Assembly: GCA_964635905.1 (NCBI GenBank)
Contig: CAZWPK010000001.1
Coordinates: forward strand, 68,894-132,893
From: an uncultured Pseudomonadales bacterium
GTDB lineage: Bacteria; Patescibacteriota; Microgenomatia; UBA1400; UBA12028
DNA length: 64,000 bases
Direction of reading: 5' to 3'
A program made the position numbers and the translations under genes. Positions 15,646 to 42,510 of this stretch are shown here, one piece after another (the first letter of the stretch is position 1; each line of letters opens with the position of its first letter). The notes below the pieces were generated by a model. It was not told the DNA's origin, searched no databases, and saw only the letters and a program-made list of their open reading frames with translations.

Positions 15646-15664
15646 TTCTATTTTTCAACTAACA

Positions 15665-25600: not shown

Positions 25601-27568
25601 TAAAGTGCCGGTATAGGTCGTGCTACTTTCCAATTTTCCGTCAATAAAAATAGACGCTCGAGTCCCATCCATGGTCGCGGCAACATGATGCCAAATTCCA
25701 TCATTGACTAGGGTTGTACCTGCGACTGCCACTCCATCGTTTACTCCTCCAACTTTGGAAAATAACACGATGGAGCCATCGGTTCCGTACGCACCTCCTG
25801 ATGTAAGACCGAGCCAATAATTGCGTGTGGTATTGCTATCGTTATCTTTGGATATAAACGTCTGTAAACTTCCTGAGGACGTCGTCTTCACCCAGGCGGC
25901 TAGAGTGAACTGTTGCAGTTGGAGGGAAGCAGCATTGGCAACGCTGATGTAGTCATTGGTTCCATCCATCCACACCGCGTTGCCAAAGCGCGCGGTGCCA
26001 GTTTTGTGGACAACTTGATAGTTACACGAGTTTAAGGTGGCAGCGAATGCATCCGTGGTAAAGGTTTTAGTACTCCCCACATAGTCGTTAATAACACGGA
26101 TGGTGTTAATCGTATTACCGCCACAGGTTGCGGTGATTTGCAGATACATTCCAACATACATGTCGTCAACGGACGACAGTGTTCCATCGGTATCAACTAA
26201 CACCGTTGTAGATCCACCGGAAGCATCGGCCGTCCCACCTTCATTTGTGCCGGTGATGGTGCCAGTATTCCCGATGCCCGAATCATCAACCACCGACGTT
26301 CCTGCCGTCAGTAGTTCATCCATCTTCCAGTAGCCAACGAGACCTTCCGAGAGAAAGGTGGTGGGGTCGTTTCCTCCTAGTTGAGCGGCCCGATTGCTAG
26401 CCATATCCATTTTTATCTGGGCGGGGGTACGCGCGTACCCATACATTTTGACCTCATCGATATATCCTTTATACAAATAGGTCGAACTATGGTTAAATCG
26501 ACCGATGCTTAAGGTTCCGGCGGTCGCGGTGTCGCGTGTTCCCGAAGTACTCGAGCTTGTGGCTACAGCTACACCATCAATGTACAGGGTCATTGTCGTG
26601 CCGGAAACCGTACATTCTAGATGATGCCATTTACTATCGCGATAATTCGTCGTTACGATGGCCTCTAGGTATGTGTTTCCTGAATTGGCTTGGTACACTT
26701 TACAGTGCAGAGTTTCATCGGTATGAAAAAAGATGGCATAGAGCCAGTCGTTGCTAGTTCCATAATTGACCAACACGTGACTGGACCCGGCGGGTCCAGG
26801 ATTTTTGAACCAAAGGGAAGTGGAAAAGTTTCCCGTAAACTCGAGCGCATTAATATCTCCCACGTTGACATAATCTTCCACTGCATCAAAGTATAAACAA
26901 CTTTCACTCACACAGCGATCTTTCGATTGCCAGACAGGGTCGGTGGAGTTAGCAGATGTCGAGTTGCCTAATGTGCCATCATAGTTTTTTGTCGTACTAT
27001 CTTCGATAAACTGTCCCTGGGCTTCATCCATCTTCCAGTACGCGACAGGACCTGGGGTAGATTCTTCGGACTGGAGGGCGAGAGAACCGAGGCCGGAGGC
27101 AGCGGAGGAGAAGTCAGCGGATTCAAATCCATTGGCAATGGTGGGGTTGCCATAATACATATAGTAGTTGGATTCCCCAGCTGGGAGGGAATCAAAGAGG
27201 ACATGGATGTTGGCCGTGGCATCACAATCTACGACATAGAATTTGAGTAACTGTCCATTTTCTTTGGTGAAGCGGAGATCACCACAATCAGCTTGGAACT
27301 TGGTAGAGTCTGTGGCATCAAAGGAGGGGACAGAGACATAGACAGAGGATTCTAAGGAGGAATGGGAGGGGATGTTGACTCGTTTTCGATAGGCCCAATT
27401 GGCATCAAACCAGGCTGCTTGACTTAAGGGAGCTTGACGTAAGGAGAAGAATACCAAGGGGATGAGAATGAGTACAACAGGAAGAGTGATCGCCAAAACA
27501 TAGAGCCGACGCAACGAACGAGATGCTGGTATGCGTTTTTGATGTCGTTTCATTAGTTGATAATCCAC
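22646..27568 (-). CDS. 1640-aa paralog of the upstream LamG/DUF2341 surface protein
   Basis: N-terminal 165 aa are identical to the 17840..22501 product apart from the first ~25 residues. Multiple LamG blocks (FDAVEDYV, MDGTNDYISV, FDGVNDYI, FDGSDDVLTV, LDGTDDFIALPD, FDGSDDYVSI). Same FGPSSGSP C-terminus. Start overlaps the giant gene's stop by 16 nt. Confidence 0.8.
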   Translation of the reverse strand: MDYQLMKRHQKRIPASRSLRRLYVLAITLPVVLILIPLVFFSLRQAPLSQAAWFDANWAYRKRVNIPSHSSLESSVYVSVPSFDATDSTKFQADCGDLRFTKENGQLLKFYVVDCDATANIHVLFDSLPAGESNYYMYYGNPTIANGFESADFSSAASGLGSLALQSEESTPGPVAYWKMDEAQGQFIEDSTTKNYDGTLGNSTSANSTDPVWQSKDRCVSESCLYFDAVEDYVNVGDINALEFTGNFSTSLWFKNPGPAGSSHVLVNYGTSNDWLYAIFFHTDETLHCKVYQANSGNTYLEAIVTTNYRDSKWHHLECTVSGTTMTLYIDGVAVATSSSTSGTRDTATAGTLSIGRFNHSSTYLYKGYIDEVKMYGYARTPAQIKMDMASNRAAQLGGNDPTTFLSEGLVGYWKMDELLTAGTSVVDDSGIGNTGTITGTNEGGTADASGGSTTVLVDTDGTLSSVDDMYVGMYLQITATCGGNTINTIRVINDYVGSTKTFTTDAFAATLNSCNYQVVHKTGTARFGNAVWMDGTNDYISVANAASLQLQQFTLAAWVKTTSSGSLQTFISKDNDSNTTRNYWLGLTSGGAYGTDGSIVLFSKVGGVNDGVAVAGTTLVNDGIWHHVAATMDGTRASIFIDGKLESSTTYTGTLYTGTEVVYLGGAPTTHPYKGIIDEARIYNRALSPLAIEQLANWATGPIGYWPMDEGSWTNDCSTATVQEKSGNAYSAIACPNSTGPMGGAEGKFGKAGFFDGVNDYIRSVGTPYTITNGSASVMAWINPSTITPAGVIAGGENGSTYGFGLAQLAGGGLFGNVRNQTQSVLTSCNTSTGILSANTWSHAAVTYEDTLTGVNVRIYLNGVLVKTCAIAGRISSNAAILIGALNSGVSTQFPGKMDDLRVYNYQRTSEQIIEDMNGGHPLAGSPVGSPIAYWALDEVQGTTINSRSSIAFTETLTGTTWKTKTDCKLNGCLDFDGSDDVLTVTNGDAIDFDVTLTQGVTISSWINADSDGENDVGQIFYKGTTTWCRVDSQSGSNLDIECSLDLTGSDATLNVSSPITTGTWNHIALTYTDDSDDEISLWVNGIRKGTSTNGSGSPAITDTANFLVGGTTTANFDGRIDEFKIYSGELSSEEIRVDANANAALNINSTSTAESAQSVDGSGNPPASYLQFDDNTGTTAVDTSSTGNTGTLTSGPVWTQGKIGTGVRLDGTDDFIALPDNSTDSHTVGTVCGWVYYNKPTDDGTQGSFFSVADTGGTVTKHSIYISDTGSDIARLRVHIRQDGTANDAYDYTSADNAIPRLTWTHLCLRQAGSGLGVEMFVNGVKIAVTATDGGAGSLNDWFDDGAASVEAVTIGNIQDNSPDSFLNGSVDEFKLYNYARTDAQIAYDFSRGAPIAHWKLDECQGNTLNDSSGKGNNGTLTVGASGSQTTAGTCTTASTAWGNGSTGKFNGSLNFDGSDDYVSIADTSIFSPDVGEQSVSVWFKTSADYSGGIGYIFSNVGTTTTHRFNIYVNTTNRVACNVGNASGSGTVSPSPLVNDGAWHHFVCTLSYNGSSHEVYMFLDGKTVSGSAGFNGNTITTTGRSKTIGTYAATVGSNNFTGQIDALQIFNYRLSIYHARKLYNNNASLFFGPSSGSP
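27035..27497. repeat. about 463-bp perfect direct repeat, copy 2 (5' coding end of LamG gene 2)
   Basis: Identical to 21971..22433. The two copies are 5064 bp apart. Confidence 0.8.
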
Positions 27569-30500
27569 CAGTTAAACTCCACATCCTTACTCAAGGCTTG
27601 GTCCAGCGTGACCGTAAACCCACCCACGGTAGTAGTTGTCTCGTCTTGACCTTGTTTGCCAGAGACATACAAGACTTGGTTATTCGTACTGCTCGTTGGT
27701 GTGATATAGATTAACGAGTCCGAGGACACTTGAGTGGTATAAATAATGACATCGGTTTGTCCTTGCTTCAAGACGGCTTTTCCAGTACTTGCGTTTGTTG
27801 CCGATCCACTCGCTGTGGTTGGGGCGCTCAAGGTCAGTTTAGCAAAAGTTGCAGATCCACTGGCATCAATAGAGGCAACTTCTGTCATCCCGCTCTTGAT
27901 GGCAAGTTTGCCACTTTCACTGGAAAGAACCCCACTCTCACTAGCCAGTTGAATCCCTAAAATCTTGGATTCCGGAGCAATCAAGGTTGTTGACAGTTGA
28001 CCCTGGACGGTCACGTCTTGGGTAAAGAGAGCGTCGGTTGTCACCACTAATCCACCTTCGCGATTAAGGGTGAGAGCCCCAGCTAACAGATCTAAGGTTC
28101 CAGTCCCGGTAGCTTGGACATAAAGGGTCGACTCGGTGTCGGAAATAAGATTAATCGAGTTTTTGTCAAATGCCATACTGCTTCCTACAATGAGGGCCGT
28201 ATTGATGTGAGCATTGGTGATACTGGCCGTGCCTTGGACGTTTAAGTATTCGTTAGCAAAAACCGCATCGGCCGAAATCAGATCCGCAGAACTGCTAGCC
28301 TCTGTATTCCAGTCGGCACTGTCGGAAAGCAGATCGGAGACAATCAATTTAATTTCTGGATTCAAACTCGCAAGCAATTCATCCTTTTGTTGTCCGGAGA
28401 TTGTGGAATCCTGAGCCAACAGGGATGAAATGGAAGCTTCTGCGGTAATTAGCCGATTTGCCATTTCGGTGATATTTTTAGCTGTCAAGTTTCCAGAGAT
28501 GGTGGCCTCGGCAGCCGTCAGAATTCCAGAGATGGAGGCTTCTCGAGTATCCACGCGCTCACTCTGGGAAACTAAGTATCCATTTTGTGCAATCGTATCG
28601 ATGACTAAGTTATGCAGACTCTTTCCCCCAACGGTTAACGTGTCTGTTTGAATCGACGAAGATTGAATAGTTCCAGCAATCAACGTGGTAAAGACATTAC
28701 TCGTAGACTCCACAATTTCGGAGAGGGAAGCGGCAATCGAACGAATCAGCGTTTTATTGGCTTCTGCTTCTGGATTACTGGCAAGTTGTGCTAATCCATC
28801 AGCAACCATTTGGCCTTGGTTATCCAGTGCCATCGTGGGATCAGCAAACGATGGATTCACATACACTAAGACGTCACGATCTCCAGAGCCTGGGGTCCAA
28901 GCTTCCAAGGCATATCCGATAATATAGCCTGGTTTATTGGCTTTGGTAGCGCGTCCCGATTGTGTCGAAGGTCGCAGCGGATCTCCGGGGCGAATGGAGC
29001 CTTCTTGATCGTCTAGTTTAACATCGAGCTGTCCAGTGAATCCAACCAAAGCATAACTGGCAGCAATTTGTTCATCGGTTTTCCCTTTAGGGTAGTTTCC
29101 AACAAAACCAGCGCGATTGGAGGTGATACCTAAGAGTTTGTCTCCGGACTGGAATCGACGCACTTTTCCAGTTTCATAGTTAATACCCACGACTTCATTA
29201 GTGGGCAGGTCGCCTTCCTTTTCAAAGTATTCTGCAAGGTCGGCACCCGTAGTTTGGAAGGCAGCTTCACCATAGACTGTTCCATCGGCTCGGACGCGGA
29301 AGACTGAAGCAGCATCAGAACGTGTTAAGGAATTGTACGCGGTAATTAAGTTGTAGGCAGTGGTAGATGATCCAGCCCCTTCAACAGTCAATACACCTGG
29401 ATCACCTTGGGCGCCAGCGGTTCCTACGTTGGTCATGGTGATCGCTCCCGTGTTTCCGTTACGCACCAATAATGAGATGGTATCCAGATCATTGGTGGTG
29501 ATAAATCCACCCGCCACATTAAGATCAGTGGCGGTTGTGCCGGTTACCGATGTGGAGGTGTTACTAACCACAAAGTTCCCCGTACCTGTTAGGTCGGCGA
29601 CGATATCGCCTCCATTGTAGGTGCGTAGAGTCAAGTCGTTACTCTCATAATTTTCTCCGGCTTCAATGTAGAGCGGAGCCTTGGACTTGATAGAAGATGT
29701 CGTTTGATTGGTAAACTGCAAATCATATGCCATTGAGACATCCCCAGGGGCATTAAAGGCGACTGGTAAGGCGGCAGTGATAGCAGTCTCAGAGACAGAG
29801 AAGAGAGATGAGGCCGTGTCAGCAACCGAGAACAAGTTGCCACTGGTACTGCCATTGGTGCCAATGTTGATTCGGAAGAGATCTCCAGTGGCAGACGTTG
29901 CCGATCCCGGACTCCAATCGAAGTTGGCTAAGAAACCGGAAGTAAAGGCTGTAGAGGTAGAGGCGAGGGAGAGACCGGTACCGGAGGAGAGGGCATTAAC
30001 GCTGAGCGCTAATCCAGTCCCTGTAGCCGTTGCAGACTGAATGAGCATACCGGAGGTACCAGCGGTGACTAATTCCAATCGATCATCAGTGGCTTCATCA
30101 TAGCCCAAGGTCCAATCTTGATCCAAGCCGAAAGCAATTCCATTGTCGTCACCCAAGAACAACTGCTCCCATTCCGCAGCTGCAGATCCTAGTGAATTTC
30201 CTTCGGCGGCGCCAGCTGTCAAGTTGGTGGCATTCAGGGCTAGTTCGGCAACAGAATTGATGTAGAAGGTAGCGGTATCTGCCGTGGCTTCTCCTAAATC
30301 GATGTTTTCACCACCTGCAGTGGTAATGTCACCACCGCCTACACTCAAATCTCCAGAGACTGCTGTGGTTGGTGCGGTAATGGTAACAGTTCCATCCGTA
30401 TCGTTATCAATTTTTTCTCCATTCGCAAAGGTGATATCTCCACCAACCCCTGAAAGTGTTAATCCTGTGGTCCCGGAAATGGTAGTATTTCCAGACAGCG

Positions 30501-33500
30501 TGAGATCTCCACCAGAGGGAGCGATGGTCAGATCCCCGTTCGTATCGGTGGTCAAGTCGGAGTAGGTAGACCCATCAGCATAGGTTAGTCGTAATTGAGA
30601 ACCGGAGGTAGCTAAGACATCGAGTTTTCCATCCGGTCCGGTGGTTCCGATTCCCACATTTCCAGAGGTGTTGATCGTTAAGAAGGCATTGGTACCTGGT
30701 GTTGTTCCATCACCAATCTGGAAAAGGTCGTCATCATCCGACCCTGCATCTTCTTGAACACCTAACCAGAAATCGGTATCGGTGGCTGTCTTCGTATCCA
30801 AAATAATGTTGGGATCTGCAGAGTTGATCACCACATCTCCGGTTCCTTGGAAATCAAAGACGGCATTTCCAGTTCCATAGGTTTGGAAGGAAAGGTTGTT
30901 GTTTTCAAATGATTCACCAGCTTGCAGAATCAATGGTCCATAAGACTTGATATAGGCTGCTGTTTGATTGGTAAAGAGGAGATCGTAGGCCATCGAGACA
31001 TCCCCAGCTGCCGTAAAGGAAGTTGGGAGATTTGCAGTGATTGCAGATTCTGAGACCGAGAAGAGGGAAGAACCAGTGTCTTCAATATCAAAGAGATTTC
31101 CAGTTGTTGTCCCATTCGTACCAATATTGATTCTAAAGAGATCTCCAGAGGCTGTTGTGGCTGATCCTGGACTCCAGTCCAAACTTGCAAGACTTCCGGA
31201 AGTTAAGGCTGTAGATGTAGAAGAGAGAGCCAAACCCGTTCCGGAGGAGAGGGCATTAAAGGTGGTGGCAAGACCAGTCCCTGTAGCTGTTGCAGACTGA
31301 ATTAGCATACCGGAGGTACCAGCGGTGACTAATTCCAATCGATCATCAGTGGCTTCATCATAGCCCAAGGTCCAATCTTGATCCAAGCCGAAAGCAATTC
31401 CATTGTCGTCACCCAAGAACAACTGCTCCCATTCCGCAGCTGCAGATCCTAGTGAATTTCCTTCGGCGGCGCCAGCTGTCAAGTTGGTGGCATTCAGGGC
31501 TAGTTCGGCAACAGAATTGATGTAGAAGGTAGCGGTATCTGCCGTGGCTTCTCCTAAATCGATGTTTTCACCACCTGCAGTGGTAATGTCACCACCGCCT
31601 ACACTCAAATCTCCAGAGACTGCTGTGGTTGGTGCGGTAATGGTAACAGTTCCATCCGTATCGTTATCAATCTTCTCACCGTTGGCAAAGGTGATGTCTC
31701 CACCAACTCCTGAAAGAGTTAATCCTGTGGTCCCCGATACAGTCAGGTTTCCAGCTGCGGTAATCGCGCCAGCAGTTAACGTCATGGAATCGGAGGCAAA
31801 GGCGAGAGTTGGATCGGTAGCACCTGCATCAAAGGTCCAGGTAAATCCAGATCCGGATCCATAGGTGGTAGTGCCAACTTCGGTAGAATCCCAGGCAATG
31901 TCATCGGCGTTAATATCAATCGCGGTTCCTTCACCGACATTCAAGGTCACATCGCCGGTGATTCCACCACCCGTTAATCCGGAGCCAGCGACTACACTGG
32001 TAATATCTCCACCGGATCCTGCGATCGCCGCATCCAGGTCATCGAGGACATCTTGCACGGTTGTCGAAGCGGAATTACCAAACTCATCAAAGACGCCAAC
32101 TAACGAAGCTCCAGAAGTAATATTGTCTGTTCCCACATCATTGAGGCCAATGGCACCGATGGTTAAGTCTCCACCGGTATTGATGGTGAGATTCACGACA
32201 TCCGAGACAGTACCGGTGTTAATATCGATACCATTAATTGTTTCAGCAGTTGCTGCGGTGATGGCTCCGGAGGCATCAACTTGGAAGGCGTTTGCGGTAC
32301 CAGAGATTAATGTTCCCGATACATCCAAGTTTCCAGTGATTCCAGTAGAACCAGCAGTAATGGTGAGGGCATCGGAGGCAAAGGCGAGTGTTGGGTCGGT
32401 AGCACCTGCATCAAAGGTCCAGGTGATTCCTGATCCACTTCCGAATGTGGTAGTTCCTAGTTCTGTGGAATCAAAAGTCACGGTGGGACTCCAGGCTTCT
32501 CCAGCGGAACCAGAGACATCGATGGCTGTTCCTTCCGTGAGTCCGGCGATATAATTCCCAGTGGTGTCGGTGCCGAGGGCAACCGAGTCTGAAGCAATGG
32601 TGAGTGCGGTTGTATTAGCTGCACCCAAAGTCGCAGTCACATCACCGGTGAAGGTGTGACCAGAGAGAAGTACCGTACCTGTTAAGTCAGGGAAGGTAAT
32701 GGTCTTGTCCGCACTCGTTGCATCGGCAACGGAGAAGTACGTTTCAATCGTGTTGGCAGTGGCCCCTTCAAAGATGAGTCCTGACACACCAAACTTGGAT
32801 TCATTCGCCGCGAGGGTGTGATCTCCAGATAATGCTGCAGTGAAATCGAAGGCGATGGCATCCGCAGCAACACTAATTCCGGTTCCCGCTCCAATGTTGA
32901 GTGTTAATGCTCCAACTGTTCCACCACCTGTGAGCCCTGATCCTGCAGTGACTCCAGTTGTTGCATACGTTGCCACGTTGTTGGAGTCTACCAGCGTTCC
33001 GGATCGTCCATCGAGGAGTAAGAGTTCTGCTGTAGAGAGAGTTCCACCAGTAACGGTGACATTGTTGGATCCTAATGCCAACGTTCCAGCTGCAGTGATT
33101 GTGCCAGCCGTGAGGGTCAGACTATTGTTACCAGCAGCGAGGGTGGGATCGGTTACTCCAGAGCCATTCAAGGTCCAGGTGAAGTCAGAACCGGATCCAT
33201 AGGTGGTTGTTCCAACTTCCGTCGAATCCCAAGCGATATCATCCGCGTTAATATCGATAGCCGTGCCTTCACCAATATTTAAAGTGACATCTCCAGATAC
33301 TCCTCCGCCTGTTAATCCTGAACCAGCAGTCACAGAGGAGATATCTCCCGCCAAAGCTGTAGTGATCGAGGCATCGAGGTCATCTAAGACATCTTGAACG
33401 GTTGTTGAGGCTGAGTTTGCGAATTCATCAAAAGTTCCAACCAAGGATGAACCAGAAGTAATATTGTCTGTTCCCACATCATTGAGGCCAATGGTTCCGA

Positions 33501-36500
33501 TGGTTAAGTCTCCACCGGCGTTAATGGTTAAGTTCACCACGTCACTGACGGTTCCCGTGGTGATATCAATGCCATTAATTGTTTCGTTGGTTGCAGCAGT
33601 GAGTGTCCCAGTTGTATTTAGGTTTCCGGAAGCATCAACTTGGAAGGCGTTTGCGGTGCCAGACGTCAGAGTACCCGAGACATCAAGATTTCCAGTGATT
33701 CCAGTAGAACCAGCCGTAATGGTGAGAGCATCCGAGGCAAAGGTAAGCGTAGGATCGGTAGCACCAACATCAAAGGTCCATACTACTCCAGAGCCGGATC
33801 CGAATGTTGTCGTTCCCAATTCCGTAGAGTCAAAGGTCACGGTGGGACTCCAACCTTCTCCCGGAGTTCCAGAAACATCGATAGCGGTGCCTTCGGTTAA
33901 GCCCGCGACATAATTACCCGTTGTATCAGTTCCTAAGGCTACAGAATCGGAGGAGATGGTGAGGGCGGTGGTGTTGGAGGCTCCAAGTGTAGCTGTGATG
34001 TCCCCAGTGAATGTATGACCGGATAAGAGAACGGTTCCTGAGAGGTCAGGGAAGGTAATGGTTTTGTCACTGGTGGTTGGATCCGTGACAGTGAAATAGG
34101 TTTCGATCGTGTTTGTGGTTGCTCCTTCAAAGATCAAGCCGGACTGACCAAACTTCGCGTTGTTGGCTGAGAGAGTGTGATCTCCAGAGAGGGCAGCGGT
34201 GAAATCAAAGGCAATATCATTCGCGTTCACAGCAATGCCGGTTCCAGCACCGATATCAAGGGTTAAGGCTCCGACGGTTCCACCCCCAGTTAAACCGGAT
34301 CCGGCAGTGACACCGGTTGTGGCATAGGTTGCCACATTGTTGGAGTCTACTAAGGTACCAGATCGACCATCGAGGAGCAATAATTCTGCTGTGGAAAGTG
34401 TTCCACCTGTAATCGTCAAATTGTTCGAGCCTAGAGCTAGAGTTCCTGCAGTGGTTATGGTTCCAGCAGTCAGTGTCATGGTGTCGGAGCCAAATGCGAT
34501 TGTTGGGTCGGTTGCACCCGCATCAAAGGTCCAGGTGATTCCTGATCCGGATCCATAGGTCGTTGTTCCCACTTCGGTAGAATCCCAGGCAATATCATCC
34601 GCATTAATATCAATCGCAGTTCCTTCTCCAACATTTAGGGTCACATCTCCAGAAACACCTCCTCCGGTCAACCCAGATCCCGCAGTTACCGATGAAATAT
34701 CTCCAGCTGCCCCAGCTGTGATGGCAGCATCTAAATCATCCAAGACATCTTGCACGGTGGTTGAGGCAGAGTTTCCGAATTCATCAAAAACACCAACTAA
34801 CGATGCACCAGAAGTAATGTTGTCGGAACCGACGTCATTTAATCCGATCGTTCCAATCGTTAAATCCCCACCCGCATTCACCGTAAGGTTGACGACATCC
34901 GTGACTGTCCCGGAAGAGATATCGATGCCATTGATGGTTTCTGCCGTGGCAGCGGTGATGGCTCCAGAGGCATCCACTTGGAAGGCATTTCCGGTTCCAG
35001 ATGTCAGTGTTCCAGAAATATCGAGGTTTCCGGCGATCGCGGTAGATCCAGCCGTGATCGTCAAAGCGTCAGATGCAAAAGCAAGCGTAGGATCGGTAGC
35101 TCCCACATCAAAGGTCCAGGTGATTCCTGATCCACTTCCGAATGTGGTCGTTCCCAATTCCGTAGAGTCAAAGGTCACGGTGGGGCTCCAAGCTTCTCCA
35201 GCAGTGCCTGAAATATCGATCGCAGTTCCTTCGGTAAGTCCTGCTACGTAGTTACCGGTTGTATCGGTACCTAGTGCCACGGAATCGGCCGCAATGGTCA
35301 GTGCGGTTGTGTTACTTGCTCCCAAGGTTGCAGTCACATCACCGGTGAAGGTATGTCCCGACAATAGTACTGTTCCTGACAAATCGGGGAGAGTAATGGT
35401 CTTGTCGGTTGTGGTTGGATCTGTAACTGCTAGGTAGGTTTCAATCGTGTTGGCAGTGGCACCTTCAAAGATGAGTCCTGATTGACCAAACTTGGATTCA
35501 GTGGCGGCTAGTGTGTGATCTCCAGAAAGAGCAGCAGTGAAGTCAAAGGCAATCGCGTCAGCGACAACACTAATTCCAGTTCCAGCACCAATATCCAACG
35601 TGACGTCTCCGCTTACTCCGCCGCCTGTTAATCCAGATCCAGCAGTCACGGAGGAGATATCTCCTGCAGAAGCTGTGGTGATGGCAGCATCTAAGTCGTC
35701 TAGAACATCTTGGACGGTTGTTGAAGCGGAATTACCGAATTCATCGAATACTCCAACCAAGGATGCACCGGAGGTAATATTATCTGTTCCGACGTCGTTC
35801 AAGCCAATAGCGCCGATCGTTAAGTCACCACCAGCATTTATCGTCAAGTTGACCACATCCGACACCGTTCCCGTGGTGATGTCGATCCCATTAATTGTTT
35901 CGTTGGTTGCAGCCGTTAATGTGCCTGTGGTGTTTACATTTCCCGAGGCATCAACTTGGAAGGCGTTCCCGGTTCCCGATGTGAGCGTTCCCGATACATC
36001 CAAGTTGCCTGCGACTGCTGTGGATCCAGCTGTGATGGTGAGGGCATCGGAGGCGAACGCTAAGGTAGGATCTGTCGCACCAACATCAAATGTCCAGGTT
36101 ACTCCAGAGCCAGATCCAAAAGTTGTTGTACCAAGTTCGGTAGAGTCGAACGTTACGGTGGGACTCCATGCTTCACCTGCGGAGCCAGAAATATCAATGG
36201 CAGTACCTTCGGTTAATCCTGCAACATAGTTTCCAGTGGTGTCTGTCCCTAGTGCTACAGAATCGGCGGCAATCGTTAACCCCGTCGAGTTATCAGAATC
36301 GAGTGTTGCGGTCACATCACCAGTAAATGTGTGGCCTGAGAGTAGTACAGTACCGGACAGATCAGGGAAGGTGATGGTTTTGTCAGAGGCTGTGGGATCG
36401 GTGATGGCAAAGTAGGTCTCAATCGTGTTCGCGGTTGCGCCTTCAAAGATCAAACCTGATACACCAAATTTGGATTCGTTGGCGGCCAGTGTGTGATCTC

Positions 36501-39500
36501 CAGATAATGCTGCAGTGAAATCAAAGGCGATCGCGTCAGCCGCTACACTGATTCCAGTTCCAGCACCAATGTTGAGTGTTAATGCGCCAACAGTCCCACC
36601 ACCGGTGAGTCCGGATCCTGCGGTAACTCCGGTGGTGGCATAGGTTGCCACATTGTTGGAGTCTACTAAGGTACCTGATCGACCATCGAGGAGCAATAAT
36701 TCTGCTGTGGAAAGTGTTCCACCCGTAACCGTCAGATTGTTGGATCCAAGAGCTAACGTTCCTGCTGCCGTAATGGTTCCTCCAGTGAGTGTGATGCTAT
36801 CGGAGGCAAAGGCAATCGTAGGATCGGTTGCCCCTGCATCGAATGTCCAGGTGATTCCCGATCCCGATCCAAAGGTCGTCGTTCCAACTTCCGTCGAATC
36901 CCAAGCGATATCATCCGCGTTAATATCGATAGCCGTGCCTTCACCAATATTTAAAGTGACATCTCCAGATACTCCTCCGCCTGTTAATCCTGAACCAGCA
37001 ACGACGGAGGTAATATCTCCAGCACCACCGATACCGGTAACATCGATCCAACTTAAGACTCCGGCGCCATCCGTAATCAAGACCTGGTTGGAACTTCCAT
37101 CGTTAGTTGGGAGGGTGTAGGTTACATCTTGGGTTTGGGTTCCAGTTTGGAACACGGTGGAATAGGCATTGTCACCATTGGAGATCAAAGCTAATTTTCC
37201 AGGGACGTTACTACTACCACTGCCAATGTCGGTTCCGATGGTGATTCCTGTTGCTCCGGCGACATGGAGTGCAGAGGAGGGTGTTTGGGTTCCAATTCCT
37301 ACGTTGGCGGCAATGATGTTGACCTCATCCGTCGCTTGATCATCAAACTCAATGCGTCCTGCAGAAGCACCCAATCCTAACCAGTCATCATCCGCAGTGG
37401 CATCGGTAAACACGTCGCCAGTTGCCATCGAACCGACAGTAGTGATGTCGCCAGTTCCAGCACCAATTCCAGTTACCGATTGCCAAGAGAGAACGCCACT
37501 CCCATTGGTAGTGAGCACATAATCACTGGTACCGTCATCCACGGGTAAGGTGAGGGAATAACTACCTGTTTGAGAGGCGCTTGGTTGGAGAGTCACTGAG
37601 TAATCGGTAGCTCCAAGTTCGTTGTAAACAACGATTGATCCGTCTGTTCCATTACTTCCAAAAGTTGCAGTTCCACCGTTCACCGCGAGTGTACCAGACG
37701 TAGAAATGTTTCCAGAACCATCAACTTGGAATGCATTAGCGGTTCCACTTGCTAATGTTCCTGAGACATCGAGATTTCCAGTAATCCCTGTTGAAGTTGC
37801 TGCAATGGTGAGCGCATCGGAGGCAAAGGTAAACGTCGGATCGGTGGCTCCGACATCAAAGGTCCAGACGACTCCAGATCCTGAACCGAACGTGGTTGTT
37901 CCCAGTTCGGTGGAATCAAAGGTCACGGTGGGACTCCAAGCTTCTCCGGCAGTTCCAGAAACATCGATGGCTGTGCCTTCGGTTAAGCCCGCGACATAAT
38001 TACCGGTTGTATCGGTACCTAGTGCCACGGAATCGGCTGCGATGGTGAGGGCGGTGGTGTTACTTGCCCCTAAGGTTGCAGTCACGTCGCCAGTGAACGT
38101 GTGGCCAGAGAGAAGTACCGTACCTGTGAGGTCAGGGAAGGTAATGGTCTTGTCTGCACTCGTTGCATCCGCAACCGAGAAATACGTTTCAATCGTATTG
38201 GCCGTCGCACCTTCAAAGATAAGCCCCGAGACACCAAACTTTGATTCGTTAGCGGCTAGTGTGTGATCTCCAGAAAGAGCAGCCGTGAAGTCAAAGGCAA
38301 TCGCGTCAGCGGCTACACTGATTCCCGTTCCCGCTCCGATATCCAGGGTGACGTCGCCGGAAGCTCCGCCGCCAGTGAGTCCTGATCCAGCCGTTACAGA
38401 AGAAATATCTCCAGCAGCTCCTGCGGTAATGGCGGCATCTAAATCATCCAAGACATCCTGAACGGTAGTGGAATTGGAATTGGTAAACTCATCAAAGACT
38501 CCAACCAGTGAGGAACCGGAGGTGATGTTTGTTGTACCCACATCGTTTAAGCCGATCGTTCCAATCGTTAAATCTCCACCGGCATTGACGGTGAGGTTGA
38601 CGACATCCGTAACAGTTCCGGTGTTGATATCAATCCCATTGATGGTTTCATCGGTGGCGGCACTGATGGTACTGGCTGTGACAATGGCACCAGCCGTTGA
38701 AATAGACCAATCATCCCCACCTGTTAACGCCAGCGTTGTAGAAGCGTTGTTGTTCCCAATCGTAATCACATCCGCAGCTGTACTGTTGGTTGCGATGTTA
38801 ACGGTATCTGCAGCAGAGGAGCTGACACCCGCAATATCGATCGTCTTTCCGGTGGTGTTGTCCCCGATGTTAATTCTCCCCGTTCCTTCAATCAAAATAT
38901 CATTGCGGACATCGGTGTTATTGGCGATGACAAAGTTATCGGCATCCACACTGATGTAATAATCTTCAGCTGCAGAAGTGGTGTCATTAAAATAGAGGGT
39001 AGGATCAGCCTGTTGGAATGAATGATCACTGGTCCACACAAAGGCATAGGCCTGATCAACGGCAACGCTATCCGTTGCAACGGTAATTCCATTTCCAGCT
39101 CCAACATCCAAGACTCCGGTAGTCAAGGTAAGTCCATTTCCGGCAGTGGTACTGGCCAGCTCTAGTGCGGCTGTCCATCCTTCCCCAGCAGTTCCGGTTA
39201 CGGTAATTCCATTGGTACCAGTGACGTTGGCGACATAATTTCCGGTTGTATCGGTACCTAGTGCCACGGAATCGGCTGCGATGGTGAGGGCGGTGGTGTT
39301 ACTTGCCCCTAAGGTTGCAGTCACGTCGCCAGTGAACGTGTGGCCAGAGAGAAGTACCGTACCTGTGAGGTCAGGGAAGGTAATGGTCTTGTCTGCACTC
39401 GTTGCATCCGCAACCGAGAAATACGTTTCAATCGTATTGGCCGTCGCACCTTCAAAGATAAGCCCCGAGACACCAAACTTTGATTCGTTAGCGGCTAGTG

Positions 39501-42500
39501 TGTGATCTCCAGAAAGAGCAGCCGTGAAGTCAAAGGCAATCGCGTCAGCGGCTACACTGATTCCCGTTCCCGCTCCGATATCCAGGGTGACGTCGCCGGA
39601 AGCTCCGCCGCCAGTGAGTCCTGATCCAGCCGTTACAGAAGAAATATCTCCAGCAGCTCCTGCGGTAATGGCGGCATCTAAATCATCCAACACATCCTGA
39701 ACAGTGGTTGACGCGGAGTTTCCAAATTCATCAAACACTCCAACTAGTGAGGCTCCGGAAGTAATGTTATCCGTTCCAACATCGTTCAAGCCAATCGTGC
39801 CAATGGTCAGATCTCCACCGGCATTGATGGTCAAATTCACCACATCCGAGACGGTACCGGTCGTAATATCAATGCCGTTAATCGTCTCATTGGTTGCAGC
39901 GGTGAGTGTCCCCGTGGTATTGAGGTTCCCTGATGCATCCACTTGGAAGGCGTTGGCAGTTCCAGAGTTGAATGTTCCGGAGACATCGAGGTTTCCTGTA
40001 ATTGCGGTAGCGCCTGCGGCAATGGTGAGTGCATCGGAAGCAAAGGTCAGGGTGGGATCGGTGGCACCAGAGCCATCGAAGGTCCAGGTGAAGTTCGAGT
40101 TCGCTCCAAAGATGGTGGTGCCGACTTCAGTCGAATCAAACGTGACGGTGGGACTCCATCCTTCACCTGCGGCACCGCTAATATCAATCGCAGTTCCTTC
40201 GGTGAGTCCGGCAACATAGTTCCCAACGGTCTGGGTACCTAAGTCAACGGCATTATTGGCAATCGAAATATTGGCTTCATTGGACGGTGAGGCGATCAAG
40301 GAAAATTCTGTGCCAAAATCCAAGGTATCCACGTTGGTGCCAACCGCAACATCATTATTCTCCACGTTGACCACGGCAAACGAAGCACCCGTATCGGATC
40401 CACATTCCCACAAACTGGTCGCATCATTCCATTTCAGAACTTGGCCATCCGAACACCCTTGGAGTAATCCAATGCGATCGGTGTCGACTTCTAGTCCCGA
40501 TGCAGATCCCGTGGATCCCGTACCATCGGCCGAAATCAATTGCAGGGCATCGGCATCCAAATATCCTGTGGCGGTTGTCAGCGTAACTGGTGTAGACCCA
40601 GCCAGCAATTGACCACTTACCAGGACGTTTCCACCGGAGAAGACAAATTGATCAGAGGTATTATAGGACAAACTACCAGTATCTCCAGTGGATGAATACA
40701 GCGACAGGGTTGCATCGGCAGTGGCGCCAGTCCCAATCCGAACCAGGTTACTTGCCACATTCACGGAAAAAGAAGAGGCTAGGGTAGAGCCACCAATCGC
40801 AACGTCATCCGTCGTGGCGGTAAGGTAGGAGAGGGTTCCGGAGTCTGTCCACTTGGAAGCACCCGATCCCATGGCAGAGTCAAAATCATCCAAGACGTCT
40901 TGAAGCGTCGTTGCATTGGAGTTATTAAATTCATCATACACACCAATCAAGGCTGCTCCGGAGGTGGTGTTACTGGAGCCGATGTCATTGAGTCCAATCC
41001 CGCCAATCGACAGATCTTGACCCGCTGTTAAGTTCAGAGAACCCGCACTGTTAATGGTTAACACGTCGGTTCCATCCGAAGCTTCGATCACAAAGTAGTT
41101 TGCAGTTTGGGTGCTGTTTCCTTGAATGAGGAATTGGATCTCATCGCTATCGCCATCAATGCCTAGTTTTGCTAAGTCGAGTGTCGAGCCAATAGTCAGA
41201 TCATCCGTGGTTGCGGTCAGATAGGTTACATCTCCACCATCCGTGAAGAGATTTAAGGATGCGCCATCGCCCCAACTGAAGCCACCGGTTGCAGAGTTAT
41301 AGGAGAGCAGCGCCCCATTAGCTGCGGTTCCAGAGACTTTGATATCGACAGCTGCGATACTGCCATCTTCTAACTCAGCGGAAGCAATCGAGGTCCCTAA
41401 ACTGGTTTGCAAGGATCCATTGGAGACTAAGAGTCCCGTGCCGGTCAAGTCCGTAAAGGAATCTCCATTCAGTGAGAGGGTACCAATCGTTGCCGTGGTG
41501 AGTTGGGCGTTGGGACCATACAAGGTGCCGTCCAATTCAATGTCCCCTGAAACGAATAAATCTCCGGCTGCGGAGTCAATACTTCCTGGAGTGGAATCTC
41601 CAATCAACACCGCTCCACCACCCGGATCAATGACAAGATCTCCCGGCGTTGAAAGCGTATTCCCCGCAATGGTTAAGTCTCCGCCTACGGTTGTGGTACT
41701 CGTGGCGGATCCAATGGTGATGAGCTGGGCAATCGACGGGAAGATGGAAGCGGATGTTACGGAGGTGAGCAACTGTCCACTTTCCAGGGTTAAGGAGCCA
41801 GCAATGGTTGCGTCTTTTGCCACACGGAAATTCTCATTGAGCACGGTATCAACGTTGAGCGAGAAGCGTGTGTACTCTAAGGCGGTGCTACCTAAGATAA
41901 CCGACGGCATCTGCACTGATTCCGGAGCTTTTTTGCCCAAAACGAGGAATCTAGGAGCTTGTAATCGAGGAAGACGGAAGCCTAAGGCAATCGTCTGTAG
42001 TTTTGCAAACTCCACACTGGGAGTACTCGTCACGATCAAGGACGAGAGAGCAAGTAGGGCAATACAACACACCGTTACCAAGGCTGGGCGCAGATCCGCA
42101 ATACTGAGGCTTGGAAACGACACCGTGGGGAGATGGAAAGAAGGTAGCCGTAAGGAGAGCTGCTTGTGCGTGGAAACGGAGTGGGTGATCGAGGACCTCT
42201 CAACGAGTGGTGCGGATACGATGGGTGTACTGGTGGTTGCCACTACAGTAGGGGTGACCGCCGTTTCGCCATAGGGAACGGAAGTGGAGACTGGGGCAGT
42301 ATATAACCCGCGTTCGATGGCTTTCTTGTGTTTCTTGAATTCCTGAAGTTGGAGATACGAATAGCGTCGGTGACCTCCCAAAGTTCGAAGCGGTTCTAAG
42401 ATTCCACGATCTTCCCAGCGTCGGAGAGTTTTTTCAGAAACTTTAAGGATCCTGGCGGCCTCTTGAATGGAAAGTGAGCTAGTATCGAAGTGATTTTCCG

Positions 42501-42510
42501 GCAAACTCAT
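27553..42510 (-). CDS. giant (4985 aa) repeat-rich surface protein: N-terminal MerR-type HTH, single TM anchor, long tandem-repeat ectodomain, phage tail-fibre-like modules
   Basis: Uninterrupted 14958-nt ORF. Residues 13-52 (SIQEAARILKVSEKTLRRWEDRGILEPLRTLGGHRRYSYLQL) match the MerR/excisionase HTH. TM at residues 143-162. At least 8 near-identical units of about 410 aa (NETINGIDITTGTVSDVVNLTINAGGDLTIG...). Motifs NVGIGTQTPSSALHV and NVGIGTTGPDGKLDV resemble the fibre-module signature GNVGIGTTxPxxKLxV. Gly/Thr/Ser-rich beta-solenoid-like composition. Confidence 0.8.
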   Translation of the reverse strand: MSLPENHFDTSSLSIQEAARILKVSEKTLRRWEDRGILEPLRTLGGHRRYSYLQLQEFKKHKKAIERGLYTAPVSTSVPYGETAVTPTVVATTSTPIVSAPLVERSSITHSVSTHKQLSLRLPSFHLPTVSFPSLSIADLRPALVTVCCIALLALSSLIVTSTPSVEFAKLQTIALGFRLPRLQAPRFLVLGKKAPESVQMPSVILGSTALEYTRFSLNVDTVLNENFRVAKDATIAGSLTLESGQLLTSVTSASIFPSIAQLITIGSATSTTTVGGDLTIAGNTLSTPGDLVIDPGGGAVLIGDSTPGSIDSAAGDLFVSGDIELDGTLYGPNAQLTTATIGTLSLNGDSFTDLTGTGLLVSNGSLQTSLGTSIASAELEDGSIAAVDIKVSGTAANGALLSYNSATGGFSWGDGASLNLFTDGGDVTYLTATTDDLTIGSTLDLAKLGIDGDSDEIQFLIQGNSTQTANYFVIEASDGTDVLTINSAGSLNLTAGQDLSIGGIGLNDIGSSNTTSGAALIGVYDEFNNSNATTLQDVLDDFDSAMGSGASKWTDSGTLSYLTATTDDVAIGGSTLASSFSVNVASNLVRIGTGATADATLSLYSSTGDTGSLSYNTSDQFVFSGGNVLVSGQLLAGSTPVTLTTATGYLDADALQLISADGTGSTGSASGLEVDTDRIGLLQGCSDGQVLKWNDATSLWECGSDTGASFAVVNVENNDVAVGTNVDTLDFGTEFSLIASPSNEANISIANNAVDLGTQTVGNYVAGLTEGTAIDISGAAGEGWSPTVTFDSTEVGTTIFGANSNFTWTFDGSGATDPTLTFASDALTIAAGATAITGNLDVSGTFNSGTANAFQVDASGNLNTTGTLTAATNETINGIDITTGTVSDVVNLTINAGGDLTIGTIGLNDVGTDNITSGASLVGVFDEFGNSASTTVQDVLDDLDAAITAGAAGDISSVTAGSGLTGGGASGDVTLDIGAGTGISVAADAIAFDFTAALSGDHTLAANESKFGVSGLIFEGATANTIETYFSVADATSADKTITFPDLTGTVLLSGHTFTGDVTATLGASNTTALTIAADSVALGTDTTGNYVANVTGTNGITVTGTAGEGWTAALELASTTAGNGLTLTTGVLDVGAGNGITVATDSVAVDQAYAFVWTSDHSFQQADPTLYFNDTTSAAEDYYISVDADNFVIANNTDVRNDILIEGTGRINIGDNTTGKTIDIAGVSSSAADTVNIATNSTAADVITIGNNNASTTLALTGGDDWSISTAGAIVTASTISAATDETINGIDINTGTVTDVVNLTVNAGGDLTIGTIGLNDVGTTNITSGSSLVGVFDEFTNSNSTTVQDVLDDLDAAITAGAAGDISSVTAGSGLTGGGASGDVTLDIGAGTGISVAADAIAFDFTAALSGDHTLAANESKFGVSGLIFEGATANTIETYFSVADATSADKTITFPDLTGTVLLSGHTFTGDVTATLGASNTTALTIAADSVALGTDTTGNYVAGLTEGTAIDVSGTAGEAWSPTVTFDSTELGTTTFGSGSGVVWTFDVGATDPTFTFASDALTIAATSTGITGNLDVSGTLASGTANAFQVDGSGNISTSGTLAVNGGTATFGSNGTDGSIVVYNELGATDYSVTLQPSASQTGSYSLTLPVDDGTSDYVLTTNGSGVLSWQSVTGIGAGTGDITTVGSMATGDVFTDATADDDWLGLGASAGRIEFDDQATDEVNIIAANVGIGTQTPSSALHVAGATGITIGTDIGSGSSNVPGKLALISNGDNAYSTVFQTGTQTQDVTYTLPTNDGSSNQVLITDGAGVLSWIDVTGIGGAGDITSVVAGSGLTGGGVSGDVTLNIGEGTAIDINADDIAWDSTEVGTTTFGSGSGITWTFDAGATDPTIAFASDSITLTGGTITAAGTLALGSNNLTVTGGTLSTAELLLLDGRSGTLVDSNNVATYATTGVTAGSGLTGGGTVGALTLNIGAGTGISVAADAIAFDFTAALSGDHTLAANESKFGVSGLIFEGATANTIETYFAITDPTASDKTITFPDLSGTVLLSGHTFTGDVTATLDSDNSTGLTIAADSVALGTDTTGNYVAGLTEGTAIDISGSAGEAWSPTVTFDSTELGTTTFGSGSGVTWTFDVGATDPTLAFASDALTITAGSTAVAGNLDVSGTLTSGTGNAFQVDASGNVNTTGTLTAATNETINGIDITTGTVSDVVNLTINAGGDLTIGAIGLNDVGTDNITSGASLVGVFDEFGNSASTTVQDVLDDLDAAITTASAGDISSVTAGSGLTGGGVSGDVTLDIGAGTGISVVADAIAFDFTAALSGDHTLAATESKFGQSGLIFEGATANTIETYLAVTDPTTTDKTITLPDLSGTVLLSGHTFTGDVTATLGASNTTALTIAADSVALGTDTTGNYVAGLTEGTAIDISGTAGEAWSPTVTFDSTELGTTTFGSGSGITWTFDVGATDPTLAFASDALTITAGSTAIAGNLDISGTLTSGTGNAFQVDASGAITAATAETINGIDISSGTVTDVVNLTVNAGGDLTIGTIGLNDVGSDNITSGASLVGVFDEFGNSASTTVQDVLDDLDAAITAGAAGDISSVTAGSGLTGGGVSGDVTLNVGEGTAIDINADDIAWDSTEVGTTTYGSGSGITWTFDAGATDPTIAFGSDTMTLTAGTITTAGTLALGSNNLTITGGTLSTAELLLLDGRSGTLVDSNNVATYATTGVTAGSGLTGGGTVGALTLDIGAGTGIAVNANDIAFDFTAALSGDHTLSANNAKFGQSGLIFEGATTNTIETYFTVTDPTTSDKTITFPDLSGTVLLSGHTFTGDITATLGASNTTALTISSDSVALGTDTTGNYVAGLTEGTAIDVSGTPGEGWSPTVTFDSTELGTTTFGSGSGVVWTFDVGATDPTLTFASDALTITAGSTGITGNLDVSGTLTSGTANAFQVDASGNLNTTGTLTAATNETINGIDITTGTVSDVVNLTINAGGDLTIGTIGLNDVGTDNITSGSSLVGTFDEFANSASTTVQDVLDDLDASITTALAGDISSVTAGSGLTGGGVSGDVTLNIGEGTAIDINADDIAWDSTEVGTTTYGSGSDFTWTLNGSGVTDPTLAAGNNSLTLTAGTITAAGTLALGSNNVTVTGGTLSTAELLLLDGRSGTLVDSNNVATYATTGVTAGSGLTGGGTVGALTLNIGAGTGISVAADAIAFDFTAALSGDHTLAANESKFGVSGLIFEGATANTIETYFSVADATSADKTITFPDLTGTVLLSGHTFTGDVTATLGAANTTALTIASDSVALGTDTTGNYIAGLTEGTAIDVSGSAGEAWSPTVTFDSTELGTTTFGSGSGITWTFDAGATDPTLAFASDALTITAGSTGITGNLDVSGTLISGTANAFQVDASGAITAATAETINGIDINTGTVSDVVNLTINTGGDLTIGAIGLNDVGTDNITSGASLVGVFDEFGNSASTTVQDVLDDLDAAIAGSGGDITSVVAGSGLTGGGITGDVTLNVGEGTAIDINADDIAWDSTEVGTTTYGSGSGFTWTFDAGATDPTLAFASDSMTLTAGAITAAGNLTVSGTTGLTLSGVGGDITFANGEKIDNDTDGTVTITAPTTAVSGDLSVGGGDITTAGGENIDLGEATADTATFYINSVAELALNATNLTAGAAEGNSLGSAAAEWEQLFLGDDNGIAFGLDQDWTLGYDEATDDRLELVTAGTSGMLIQSATATGTGLATTFNALSSGTGLALSSTSTALTSGSLASLDWSPGSATTASGDLFRINIGTNGTTTGNLFDIEDTGSSLFSVSESAITANLPTSFTAAGDVSMAYDLLFTNQTAAYIKSYGPLILQAGESFENNNLSFQTYGTGNAVFDFQGTGDVVINSADPNIILDTKTATDTDFWLGVQEDAGSDDDDLFQIGDGTTPGTNAFLTINTSGNVGIGTTGPDGKLDVLATSGSQLRLTYADGSTYSDLTTDTNGDLTIAPSGGDLTLSGNTTISGTTGLTLSGVGGDITFANGEKIDNDTDGTVTITAPTTAVSGDLSVGGGDITTAGGENIDLGEATADTATFYINSVAELALNATNLTAGAAEGNSLGSAAAEWEQLFLGDDNGIAFGLDQDWTLGYDEATDDRLELVTAGTSGMLIQSATATGTGLALSVNALSSGTGLSLASTSTAFTSGFLANFDWSPGSATSATGDLFRINIGTNGSTSGNLFSVADTASSLFSVSETAITAALPVAFNAPGDVSMAYDLQFTNQTTSSIKSKAPLYIEAGENYESNDLTLRTYNGGDIVADLTGTGNFVVSNTSTSVTGTTATDLNVAGGFITTNDLDTISLLVRNGNTGAITMTNVGTAGAQGDPGVLTVEGAGSSTTAYNLITAYNSLTRSDAASVFRVRADGTVYGEAAFQTTGADLAEYFEKEGDLPTNEVVGINYETGKVRRFQSGDKLLGITSNRAGFVGNYPKGKTDEQIAASYALVGFTGQLDVKLDDQEGSIRPGDPLRPSTQSGRATKANKPGYIIGYALEAWTPGSGDRDVLVYVNPSFADPTMALDNQGQMVADGLAQLASNPEAEANKTLIRSIAASLSEIVESTSNVFTTLIAGTIQSSSIQTDTLTVGGKSLHNLVIDTIAQNGYLVSQSERVDTREASISGILTAAEATISGNLTAKNITEMANRLITAEASISSLLAQDSTISGQQKDELLASLNPEIKLIVSDLLSDSADWNTEASSSADLISADAVFANEYLNVQGTASITNAHINTALIVGSSMAFDKNSINLISDTESTLYVQATGTGTLDLLAGALTLNREGGLVVTTDALFTQDVTVQGQLSTTLIAPESKILGIQLASESGVLSSESGKLAIKSGMTEVASIDASGSATFAKLTLSAPTTASGSATNASTGKAVLKQGQTDVIIYTTQVSSDSLIYITPTSSTNNQVLYVSGKQGQDETTTTVGGFTVTLDQALSKDVEFNWWIIN
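30041..31680. repeat. direct duplication of about 1.26 kb inside the giant gene (type B unit x2)
   Basis: 30041-30420 is base-identical to 31301-31680. It encodes two copies of TISGTTGLTLSGVGGDITFANGEKIDNDTDGTVTITAPTT...GMLIQSATATGTGLA. Confidence 0.75.
32600..40250. repeat. tandem array of near-identical coding repeats of about 1.24-1.34 kb inside the giant gene (type A, at least 7-8 units)
   Basis: Identical stretches can be seen directly, e.g. 38042-38266 = 39281-39505. Repeated protein blocks AT[N/D/A]ETINGIDI[T/N/S][T/S]GTV[S/T]DVVNLT[I/V]N[A/T]GGDLTIG recur. Array boundaries are approximate. Confidence 0.7.

Follow-up and report, generated by a model that had tools for sequence, protein, structure and literature searches.

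The stretch of DNA analysed here (the window) is 64,000 nucleotides long and comes from contig CAZWPK010000001.1, part of a metagenome-assembled genome (MAG) of an uncultured bacterium. It contains a giant open reading frame (ORF) whose frame is unbroken across all 14,958 bp, and whose predicted protein has a helix-turn-helix (HTH) domain and a transmembrane segment near its N-terminus, a long repetitive part, and a Peptidase_G2-type domain followed by a beta-rich domain near its C-terminus (Table 1). A preliminary description of this DNA, made from the sequence alone, had proposed that the repeats are nearly identical and prone to slipped recombination. We find that they are not a near-identical, slippage-prone array: they form a mosaic of diverged modules in which only three short tracts are identical.

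The repeated region spans positions 29545-40281, close to the interval 29900-40250 given in the preliminary description, with one additional divergent module copy at 40870-41085. By protein self-comparison with BLASTP and by motif positions, we resolved the array into five module families: A (about 155 aa, six copies), B (about 75 aa, six copies, with B-like parts also occurring within D), C (about 93 aa, six copies plus the divergent N-proximal copy C0, making seven), D (about 130 aa, three copies plus one partial, making four) and E (about 315 aa, two copies with a 420-aa period). The order of modules is A-tail B1 C1 A1, U1, C2 A2 B2, U2, D1 A3 B3 C3, A4 B4 C4, D2 A5 B5 C5, D3 A6 B6 C6, D4 (partial), E1, linker, E2, where U1 (residues 1118-1282) and U2 (residues 1609-1833) are unique inserts that interrupt the array. 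Successive A modules are spaced 1239, 1770, 978, 1338 and 1359 bp apart. Tandem Repeats Finder reported nothing, since it detects periods of up to 500 bp and these units exceed that length and have diverged from one another; DNA self-BLAST, used in its place, gave 33 distinct pairs of self-matching segments with identities of 72.7-92.5%. None of the modules A-E has a family match in Pfam, PHROGs or NCBIfam. The preliminary description was right that there are kilobase-scale repeats, that they are coding and in frame inside a fibre-like giant protein, and that a separate unit of about 1.26 kb is present twice (E1 and E2, which have a period of 1,260 bp and are 81% identical in nucleotide sequence and 82.5% identical in amino acid sequence over 315 aa by BLASTP). 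Its count of at least eight units of about 410 aa does not hold, as the units are not uniform.

Table 1. Coordinates in the window of the giant ORF, its domains, modules and exact repeat tracts, and its downstream neighbours.
Feature	Position	Strand	Size or residues	Basis
Giant ORF	27553-42510	minus	4,985 aa, 14,958 bp	ORF list, Pfam, translation
MerR/BldC/excisionase-type HTH	42304-42474	minus	residues 13-69	Pfam, NCBIfam, PDB profile matches
Predicted single transmembrane segment	42028-42084	minus	residues 143-161	hydropathy
C0, divergent N-proximal copy of module C	40870-41085	minus	residues 476-547	57% identity to module C
Main mosaic array	31708-40281	minus	residues 744-3601	BLASTP module mapping, motif positions
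Exact tract 1, upstream copy (C1 end and most of A1)	39242-39690	minus	residues 941-1089	
Exact tract 1, downstream copy (C2 end and most of A2)	38003-38451	minus	residues 1354-1502	
Exact tract 3, D1 copy	36881-37000	minus	residues 1837-1876	
Exact tract 3, D3 copy	33209-33328	minus	residues 3061-3100	
Second repeat family (E1, linker, E2)	29545-31770	minus	period 1,260 bp	
E1	30826-31770	minus		
Linker between E1 and E2	30511-30825	minus	105 aa	
E2	29545-30510	minus		
Exact tract 2, E1 copy	31304-31671	minus	residues 3614-3735	
Exact tract 2, E2 copy	30044-30411	minus	residues 4034-4155	
Peptidase_G2-type auto-chaperone domain (predicted)	28858-29241	minus	residues 4424-4551	PF11962, 3gqh_A profile, AF2, Foldseek
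C-terminal beta-rich domain, ending NWWIIN	27556-27786	minus	residues 4909-4985	AF2, conservation
Two downstream giant lectin-like proteins	17840-27568	minus		DUF2341 and Laminin_G_3 (Pfam)

To measure the divergence of the modules we aligned pairs of copies by codon; the ranges given here apply away from the three exact tracts. Module pairs are 70-83% identical in nucleotide sequence and 76-96% identical in protein sequence, and their longest exact runs are mostly 10-47 nt. Synonymous divergence (pS) is 0.44-0.81, nonsynonymous divergence (dN) is 0.02-0.19 and dN/dS is 0.02-0.15 in all pairs except A1-A2 and E1-E2 (the latter has a nucleotide identity of 0.81 and dN/dS of 0.23). When a residue is shared by two copies at an aligned site, the codon is also shared in a fraction 0.38-0.62 of cases, compared to 0.35-0.40 expected if synonymous codons are drawn randomly from the array's own usage (overall ratio 1.26), and for pairs C1-C3, A3-A5 and B3-B4 the observed value is at the random expectation. 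Selection for codon dissimilarity between copies can be rejected, because same-codon use is at or above random and never below it. The combination of near-saturated synonymous sites and low dN/dS means that the duplications are old and that the protein sequence of the modules is under strong purifying selection. Because their DNA is diverged and their codons are near random, most units are a poor substrate for slipped or homologous recombination, and the array is probably for the most part genetically stable. The statement that the units are nearly identical at the nucleotide level is therefore wrong for the array as a whole, where that level of similarity is confined to the three tracts.

The tracts themselves are clear exceptions to this background. 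Tract 1 is 449 nt long and its two copies are offset by 1,239 bp (413 codons), tract 2 is 368 nt long with an offset of 1,260 bp (420 codons), and tract 3 is 120 nt long with an offset of 3,672 bp (1,224 codons). When codon columns were shuffled the corresponding maxima were 91, 69 and 51 nt, and none of the 500 shuffles reached the length of any of the three; among the other runs a few of 38-47 nt are marginal and the remainder are chance-like. Outside tract 1, identity drops through 87, 78 and 61% on one flank and ends abruptly on the other. Both examples of identity in the preliminary description lie in these places: 38042-38266 and 39281-39505 match at 225 of 225 positions, within tract 1, and 30041-30420 and 31301-31680 match at 376 of 380, around tract 2. 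The simplest reading is that the three tracts look like recent, sporadic intragenic gene conversion superimposed on old divergence. Since the offsets are multiples of three, unequal exchange between the copies would be expected to yield length variants that stay in frame, and it is only these three tracts that could drive such gain or loss, by 413, 420 or 1,224 residues.

Exact tracts are also present in one orthologous gene from an independent assembly (locus L001, CAYOQI010000004.1, gene at 10001-25402), at gene positions 3691-4091 and 7819-8219 (401 nt) and 9505-9671 and 11278-11444 (167 nt), in repeats that are otherwise about 80% identical. Assembled orthologues rarely hold exact repeats of at least 40 nt, the exceptions being L001, L026 (181 nt) and L034 (83 nt).

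In-frame repeats of about 80-400 residues set the length of the alpha C/Rib, Esp and Bap-type surface proteins of Gram-positive cocci, whose repeats are near-identical in DNA sequence and vary in number between strains. If the giant gene were a locus of this kind, with a hypervariable array undergoing slipped or unequal recombination on population time scales and a fibre length that varies like a contingency locus, we might expect three in-frame exact tracts of 120-449 bp such as those found, orthologues that vary in length and module number, as they do, and contig ends like those described below, which suggest that identical repeats are longer in some relatives and could not be assembled there. 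We nevertheless regard this explanation as quite unlikely, because most unit pairs have the low identity and short exact runs given above, codons are near random, unit lengths are uneven with unique segments between them, and assembled orthologues seldom have long exact repeats. In contrast to the DNA identity of at least about 95% and the uniform period of contingency-type repeat adhesins, the modules of the giant gene are heterogeneous, 70-83% identical, spaced at 978-1,770 bp and interrupted by unique inserts.

Metagenomic assembly of such a gene calls for caution. A contig end falls inside the giant ORF in 21 of 36 orthologous loci, whereas 7 of 36 are truncated within the 10 kb upstream of it (Fisher P = 0.0015), so the caveat in the preliminary description that the copy number is only as reliable as the assembly was justified. 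The rarity of long exact repeats in assembled orthologues is in keeping with an ascertainment effect, whereby gene versions fail to assemble if their identical repeats are longer. As to whether truncated orthologous contigs end in modules homologous to those in the window, there was no consistent pattern. Short-read data are known to yield fragmented or wrong assemblies of giant genes rich in repeats (bioRxiv 10.1101/2023.11.21.568195). The contig analysed here is from an uncultured genome, and together with the frequent breaks in related loci and the published experience with short reads this raises the possibility that one or more exact tracts, or the copy number, are artefacts of assembly or polishing. 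We consider this rather unlikely: the ORF is intact over its entire length, the offset of every tract is a multiple of three, the colinear homologous flanks of tract 1 decay gradually, reads would not cross-map and homogenise the copies at a background identity of about 75%, and the independently assembled orthologue L001 has a similar tract.

At the N-terminus, residues 13-69 match the Pfam families MerR (2e-11), MerR_1 and HTH_17, with scores of 44 bits for PF00376 (cut-off 28.2) and 40.8 bits for PF13411 (cut-off 21.6), which identifies a winged HTH of MerR type. The match to NCBIfam HTH_BldC scores 40 bits, under its cut-off of 77. The HTH also matches PDB entries 8jbs and 6ama, and among named matches the best are minimal HTH proteins of the BldC/excisionase type. 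The residues KTLRRWE and T-x-G-x-HRRY are invariant in 10 homologues. Where a MerR regulator has a coiled-coil dimerisation helix and a C-terminal effector-binding domain, the giant protein has a variable linker and then the transmembrane segment. This segment is the only place in the whole protein where mean Kyte-Doolittle hydropathy exceeds 1.8 in 19-residue windows (window starts 135-148, with a peak of 2.53 at 143), an equivalent hydrophobic segment is present in 11 of 11 homologues, and in most of them lysine and arginine lie mostly on its N-terminal side. Hydropathy and flanking charges suggest a topology with the N-terminus inside and the C-terminus outside, which would place about 4,800 residues outside the cell. 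A surface-fibre protein would not be expected to carry a DNA-binding domain, as this one does (42028-42474 on the minus strand, residues 13-161 including the membrane segment).

Towards the C-terminus, the Pfam family PF11962 (Peptidase_G2, 'IMC autoproteolytic cleavage' domain) scores 46.2 bits on residues 4330-4985 and 37.8 bits on the whole protein (cut-off 25). A profile of the C-terminal region matches 3gqh_A, a C-terminal fragment of the phage phi29 protein gp12, and the first residue of that chain, an aspartate, aligns with D4424. This residue begins the motif D4424-L-A-E4427, in the context TTGA|DLAEYF, in which D, A and E do not vary among 8 homologues. We take the D and E of D-x-x-E to be the catalytic pair of MEROPS family G2, and self-cleavage is predicted to occur just before D4424. 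An AlphaFold2 (AF2) model of the C-terminal region is poor overall (mean predicted local distance difference test score, pLDDT, of 49.7) and better over residues 4424-4551 (about 67-87) and 4909-4985 (about 70-87). In a Foldseek search of the PDB, the model matches 3gqh_A (E = 8e-6, with a TM-score of 0.55 on the target) and 3suc best. The end of the protein, FNWWI(I/V)N-like, is conserved among homologues. There is no Peptidase_S74 match on the whole protein at E <= 0.01 in Pfam. The composition of the giant protein is 15.9% T, 9.8% S and 5.2% N, and half of its residues (50%) are T, G, A or S. From these features the shaft is probably a phage-type, and probably trimeric, fibre that would be assembled via the G2 auto-chaperone.

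One ABC unit, used as the query of an exhaustive search, matched 1,295 protein clusters (at the 50% identity level) with E <= 1e-3. The top matches, P0008 (5,133 aa), P0010 (4,167 aa) and P0011 (3,679 aa), share the layout of HTH, N-terminal fibre, modules, E and C-terminal region, and differ in the numbers and orders of their modules; P0008 and P0011 have a G2 domain, and none was detected in P0010. They are also positional orthologues, in loci that contain an ATP synthase operon, iPGM, a small ORF, the giant gene, one or more large downstream proteins and a TPR protein, and the window has the same gene arrangement. Comparing repeat counts across related genomes, as the preliminary description had recommended, therefore shows that fibre length changes over evolutionary time (3,679-5,133 aa among orthologues). 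This part of the earlier proposal that repeat changes alter fibre length stands, whereas slippage of near-identical units as the cause is not supported. A TPR gene follows the large downstream protein(s) in all three orthologous loci, so the block resembles a conserved cassette.

We also scanned a collection of species-representative genomes, which does not include the window's own genome, with an alignment of the N-terminal region. There are 140 relatives, of which about 36 have the full HTH, transmembrane and fibre-start region. All informatively named carriers of this N-terminus are Candidatus Woesebacteria, Microgenomates or Patescibacteria, and the fusion of HTH, linker, transmembrane segment and fibre is kept in about 36 Woesebacteria/Microgenomates species genomes. 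Many of the third-party MAG records for the related loci (L004-L081) are titled 'uncultured Gammaproteobacteria' or 'Pseudomonadales bacterium', in conflict with their gene content and named relatives, and these titles look like placeholder or wrong taxonomy.

In phylogenetic trees of modules C and A, the copies from the window cluster together, apart from the copies of other genomes, while P0008 and P0010 share some orthologous module copies. C0 falls outside the clade of six window copies; in a neighbouring clade of their own are the N-proximal copies from P0008, P0004 and P0001. The clustering by genome indicates that the modules have probably undergone lineage-specific amplification or homogenisation over long times.

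Taking the two ends of the protein, the array and its relatives together, we think it likely that the giant gene encodes a surface protein that is anchored in the membrane and resembles a phage fibre, in a Woesebacteria-like (Microgenomates/Patescibacteria) bacterium, and that its repeats are a modular shaft made mostly of stable, old modules. Several observations weigh against this interpretation. Some 430 residues (4552-4985), including helical segments and a conserved beta domain, follow the G2 domain, and P0010, although a positional orthologue, appears to be without the D-x-A-E region. For one ABC unit, AF2 on a single chain gave a model too poor to use (pLDDT 54.7, predicted TM-score 0.26). 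The exact tracts could be assembly products, and the genome-wise clustering of copies and the near-saturated codons also fit an old lineage-specific amplification. Finally, we found no sequence from the same species in genome or metagenome collections: the best match was 42% identical in the genome scan, and 72% identical over about 65 aa in the metagenome scan with U1.

Some of these points could also be accommodated if the protein were a monomeric repetitive adhesin or an S-layer-like wall protein, in which the G2-like domain is a relic lacking chaperone or cleavage activity. The modules match no known fibre family, the matches to phage proteins are weak and short (E = 2e-4 to 7e-4) with none in viral contigs, and the G2 domain is not terminal. 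We find this very unlikely, given the invariance of D, A and E in D-x-A-E, the alignment of the motif with the residue at which the cleaved fragment of phi29 gp12 begins, the match of the G2 fold to both 3gqh and 3suc, and the content of T, G, A and S. The failed prediction of a monomer is compatible with a fibre that is an obligate oligomer and does not show that there is one.

The giant protein resembles gp12 (3gqh, 3suc), the pre-neck appendage (tailspike) of bacteriophage phi29, in some respects and differs from it in others. Both have a homologous G2 domain, as judged by Pfam, PDB profile and fold, with aligned D-x-A-E residues, and in both it is C-terminal to a long and presumably fibrous part. 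Unlike gp12, the giant protein is cellular, 4,985 aa long and equipped with an HTH and a membrane anchor; its shaft modules are unrelated in sequence to gp12; and its G2 domain is not at the extreme C-terminus, where that of gp12 lies. A phage origin of the modules is not evident. TBLASTN searches of phage genomes with the repeat unit found only the short, weak matches mentioned above, which are to virion structural proteins, and a scan of viral contigs found no relative of the unit. Seven small proteins (P0167, P0172, P0176-P0178, P0181 and P0187; 299-509 aa) combine an Mtd_N domain (PF18454) with similarity to the ABC unit (54-64% identity over 13-25% of the unit). Mtd_N is the N-terminal domain of the phage major tropism determinant, and these proteins hint at a possible link to phage receptor-binding proteins.

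Cell-encoded fibres that resemble phage tail fibres have been described in Bdellovibrio bacteriovorus, which makes its living on other cells and where the MAT (mosaic adhesive trimer) proteins are mosaic and modular and many have a C-terminal self-cleaving chaperone (PMC10769870). They begin with a signal peptide followed by a beta-rich domain, conserved and about 130 aa long, and their chaperone, if present, is of the S74 type with the motif SDxxxK (PMC10769870). The giant protein is similarly a cell-encoded, phage-like surface fibre with a modular mosaic build, but it has an HTH and transmembrane N-terminus, a G2 chaperone and kilobase-scale internal repeats; compared with MAT by its published description (PMC10769870), it is not a member. 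The giant genes of Omnitrophota and other bacteria (bioRxiv 10.1101/2023.11.21.568195) are alike in coding for huge, repeat-rich, membrane-anchored extracellular proteins of ultrasmall or host-dependent bacteria and in having fragmented assemblies. They differ in having HEAT, dockerin and thrombospondin repeats in place of the A-E modules and G2 domain, and the fibre gene is five to fifteen times smaller. Literature searches found no specific description of a family with HTH, transmembrane, fibre and G2 regions in CPR (Candidate Phyla Radiation) bacteria, and among phage-like cellular fibres the family is a variant that has not been described.

We envisage that the protein works as follows. 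A cytoplasmic HTH of the MerR/BldC type would lie at the N-terminus, with the single transmembrane segment anchoring the protein so that, of the residues outside the cell, about 4,200 form a fibre built from module families A-E. The G2 auto-chaperone near the C-terminus probably drives trimer folding and may then cut itself off before D4424. Selection would preserve the protein sequence of the modules while their codons drift almost to random, leaving most of the array stable, and occasional intragenic gene conversion would restore short tracts to exact identity, as may have happened three times here. Over longer periods, duplication, loss and conversion of modules would alter fibre length and module order between species. 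The role of the fibre may be in adhesion or reach.

The current view of ultrasmall Patescibacteria is that they live attached to other cells, and the molecules that make the contact are largely unknown outside Saccharibacteria (PMC11665869). The investment in this locus is considerable, as three adjoining giant genes occupy 24.5 kb of a contig of 504,786 bp. About 36 species keep the N-terminal architecture of the fibre gene, and 3 of 3 examined orthologue neighbourhoods keep its place beside the ATP synthase operon. The modules are missing from the domain libraries we searched, yet they occur in some 1,300 protein clusters. The array also illustrates how a long repeat protein can persist, with a conserved protein sequence and almost random codons that leave little homology for recombination, and its probable conversion tracts point to sequence exchange between copies that still takes place occasionally. 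For surveys, gene lengths and copy numbers taken from public MAGs are systematically unreliable, as the short-read assemblies of most relatives break in the gene. The interest of the family lies chiefly in its conserved HTH-anchored architecture and in the contrast between scrambled codons and conserved protein.

The HTH raises the question of regulation. MYRF and MrfA are membrane-tethered transcription factors with an intramolecular chaperone domain of phage type (PMC3828593). As a loose parallel only, the giant protein is like them in joining, in one polypeptide, a DNA-binding domain to a transmembrane segment and to a self-cleaving domain of phage-chaperone type. In MYRF the chaperone is between the DNA-binding domain and the membrane segment so that cleavage releases the factor, whereas in the giant protein about 4,260 residues separate the membrane from the G2 domain, which is on the predicted outside, so its cleavage cannot release the HTH. 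The MYRF chaperone is of the S74 type, and its DNA-binding domain is Ndt80. A speculative idea, to which we give little credence, is that the fusion protein serves Woesebacteria as a membrane-tethered transcription factor that senses contact or tension, and that the neighbouring lectin-like giants, TPR and pilin genes belong to the same attachment apparatus. If so, the repeat modules would set the reach of the sensor, and binding to a host cell would be coupled directly to gene regulation or DNA handling at the site of attachment.

The preliminary description also drew attention to conserved sequons in the repeats and suggested N-glycosylation. The motifs it named are present, but there are 71 N-x-S/T sequons in the giant protein compared to 65.7 +/- 7.0 in composition-matched shuffles, so they are not enriched. 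We found no Pfam match to glycosyltransferase or oligosaccharyltransferase families among the scanned window ORFs of at least 150 aa. Neither the sequon enrichment nor, among these ORFs, the nearby cognate glycosyltransferase of an N-glycosylated adhesin is seen, and the suggestion is unsupported.

Eight ORFs of 155-311 aa run antisense to the giant gene, on the plus strand between 31865 and 42274 (31865-32554 and 35537-36229 are examples). Their recurrence stems from the repetitive sense strand, and we take them to be mechanical by-products and not genes. The first of the two downstream giants (1,640 aa) overlaps the end of the fibre gene by 16 nt; it and the second (1,553 aa) each contain a DUF2341 domain and six lectin-like Laminin_G_3 domains. 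At the P0008 and P0011 loci there is one downstream protein rich in Laminin_G_3 (2,436-2,506 aa), and at the P0010 locus there are two, of 537 and 1,675 aa, with no Pfam match on record.

Beyond the TPR gene, two overlapping ORFs (14219-15263, plus strand) have N-terminal methylation motifs like those of type IV pilins together with T2SS-G domains, and the orthologous locus L002 has an N_methyl gene at the corresponding position. A gene for a TrwB/TraG-like type IV coupling protein is nearby (54676-56880, minus strand); in an orthologous locus from JGI, a TrwB-like gene adjoins the ATP synthase operon. ComEA-like (HHH_3/SLBB) and ComEC-like (Competence) genes are located at 60520-62441 on the plus strand. 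Two tRNA-Ala genes, with anticodons GGC and CGC, lie about 430 bp apart at 10248-10825 on the plus strand.

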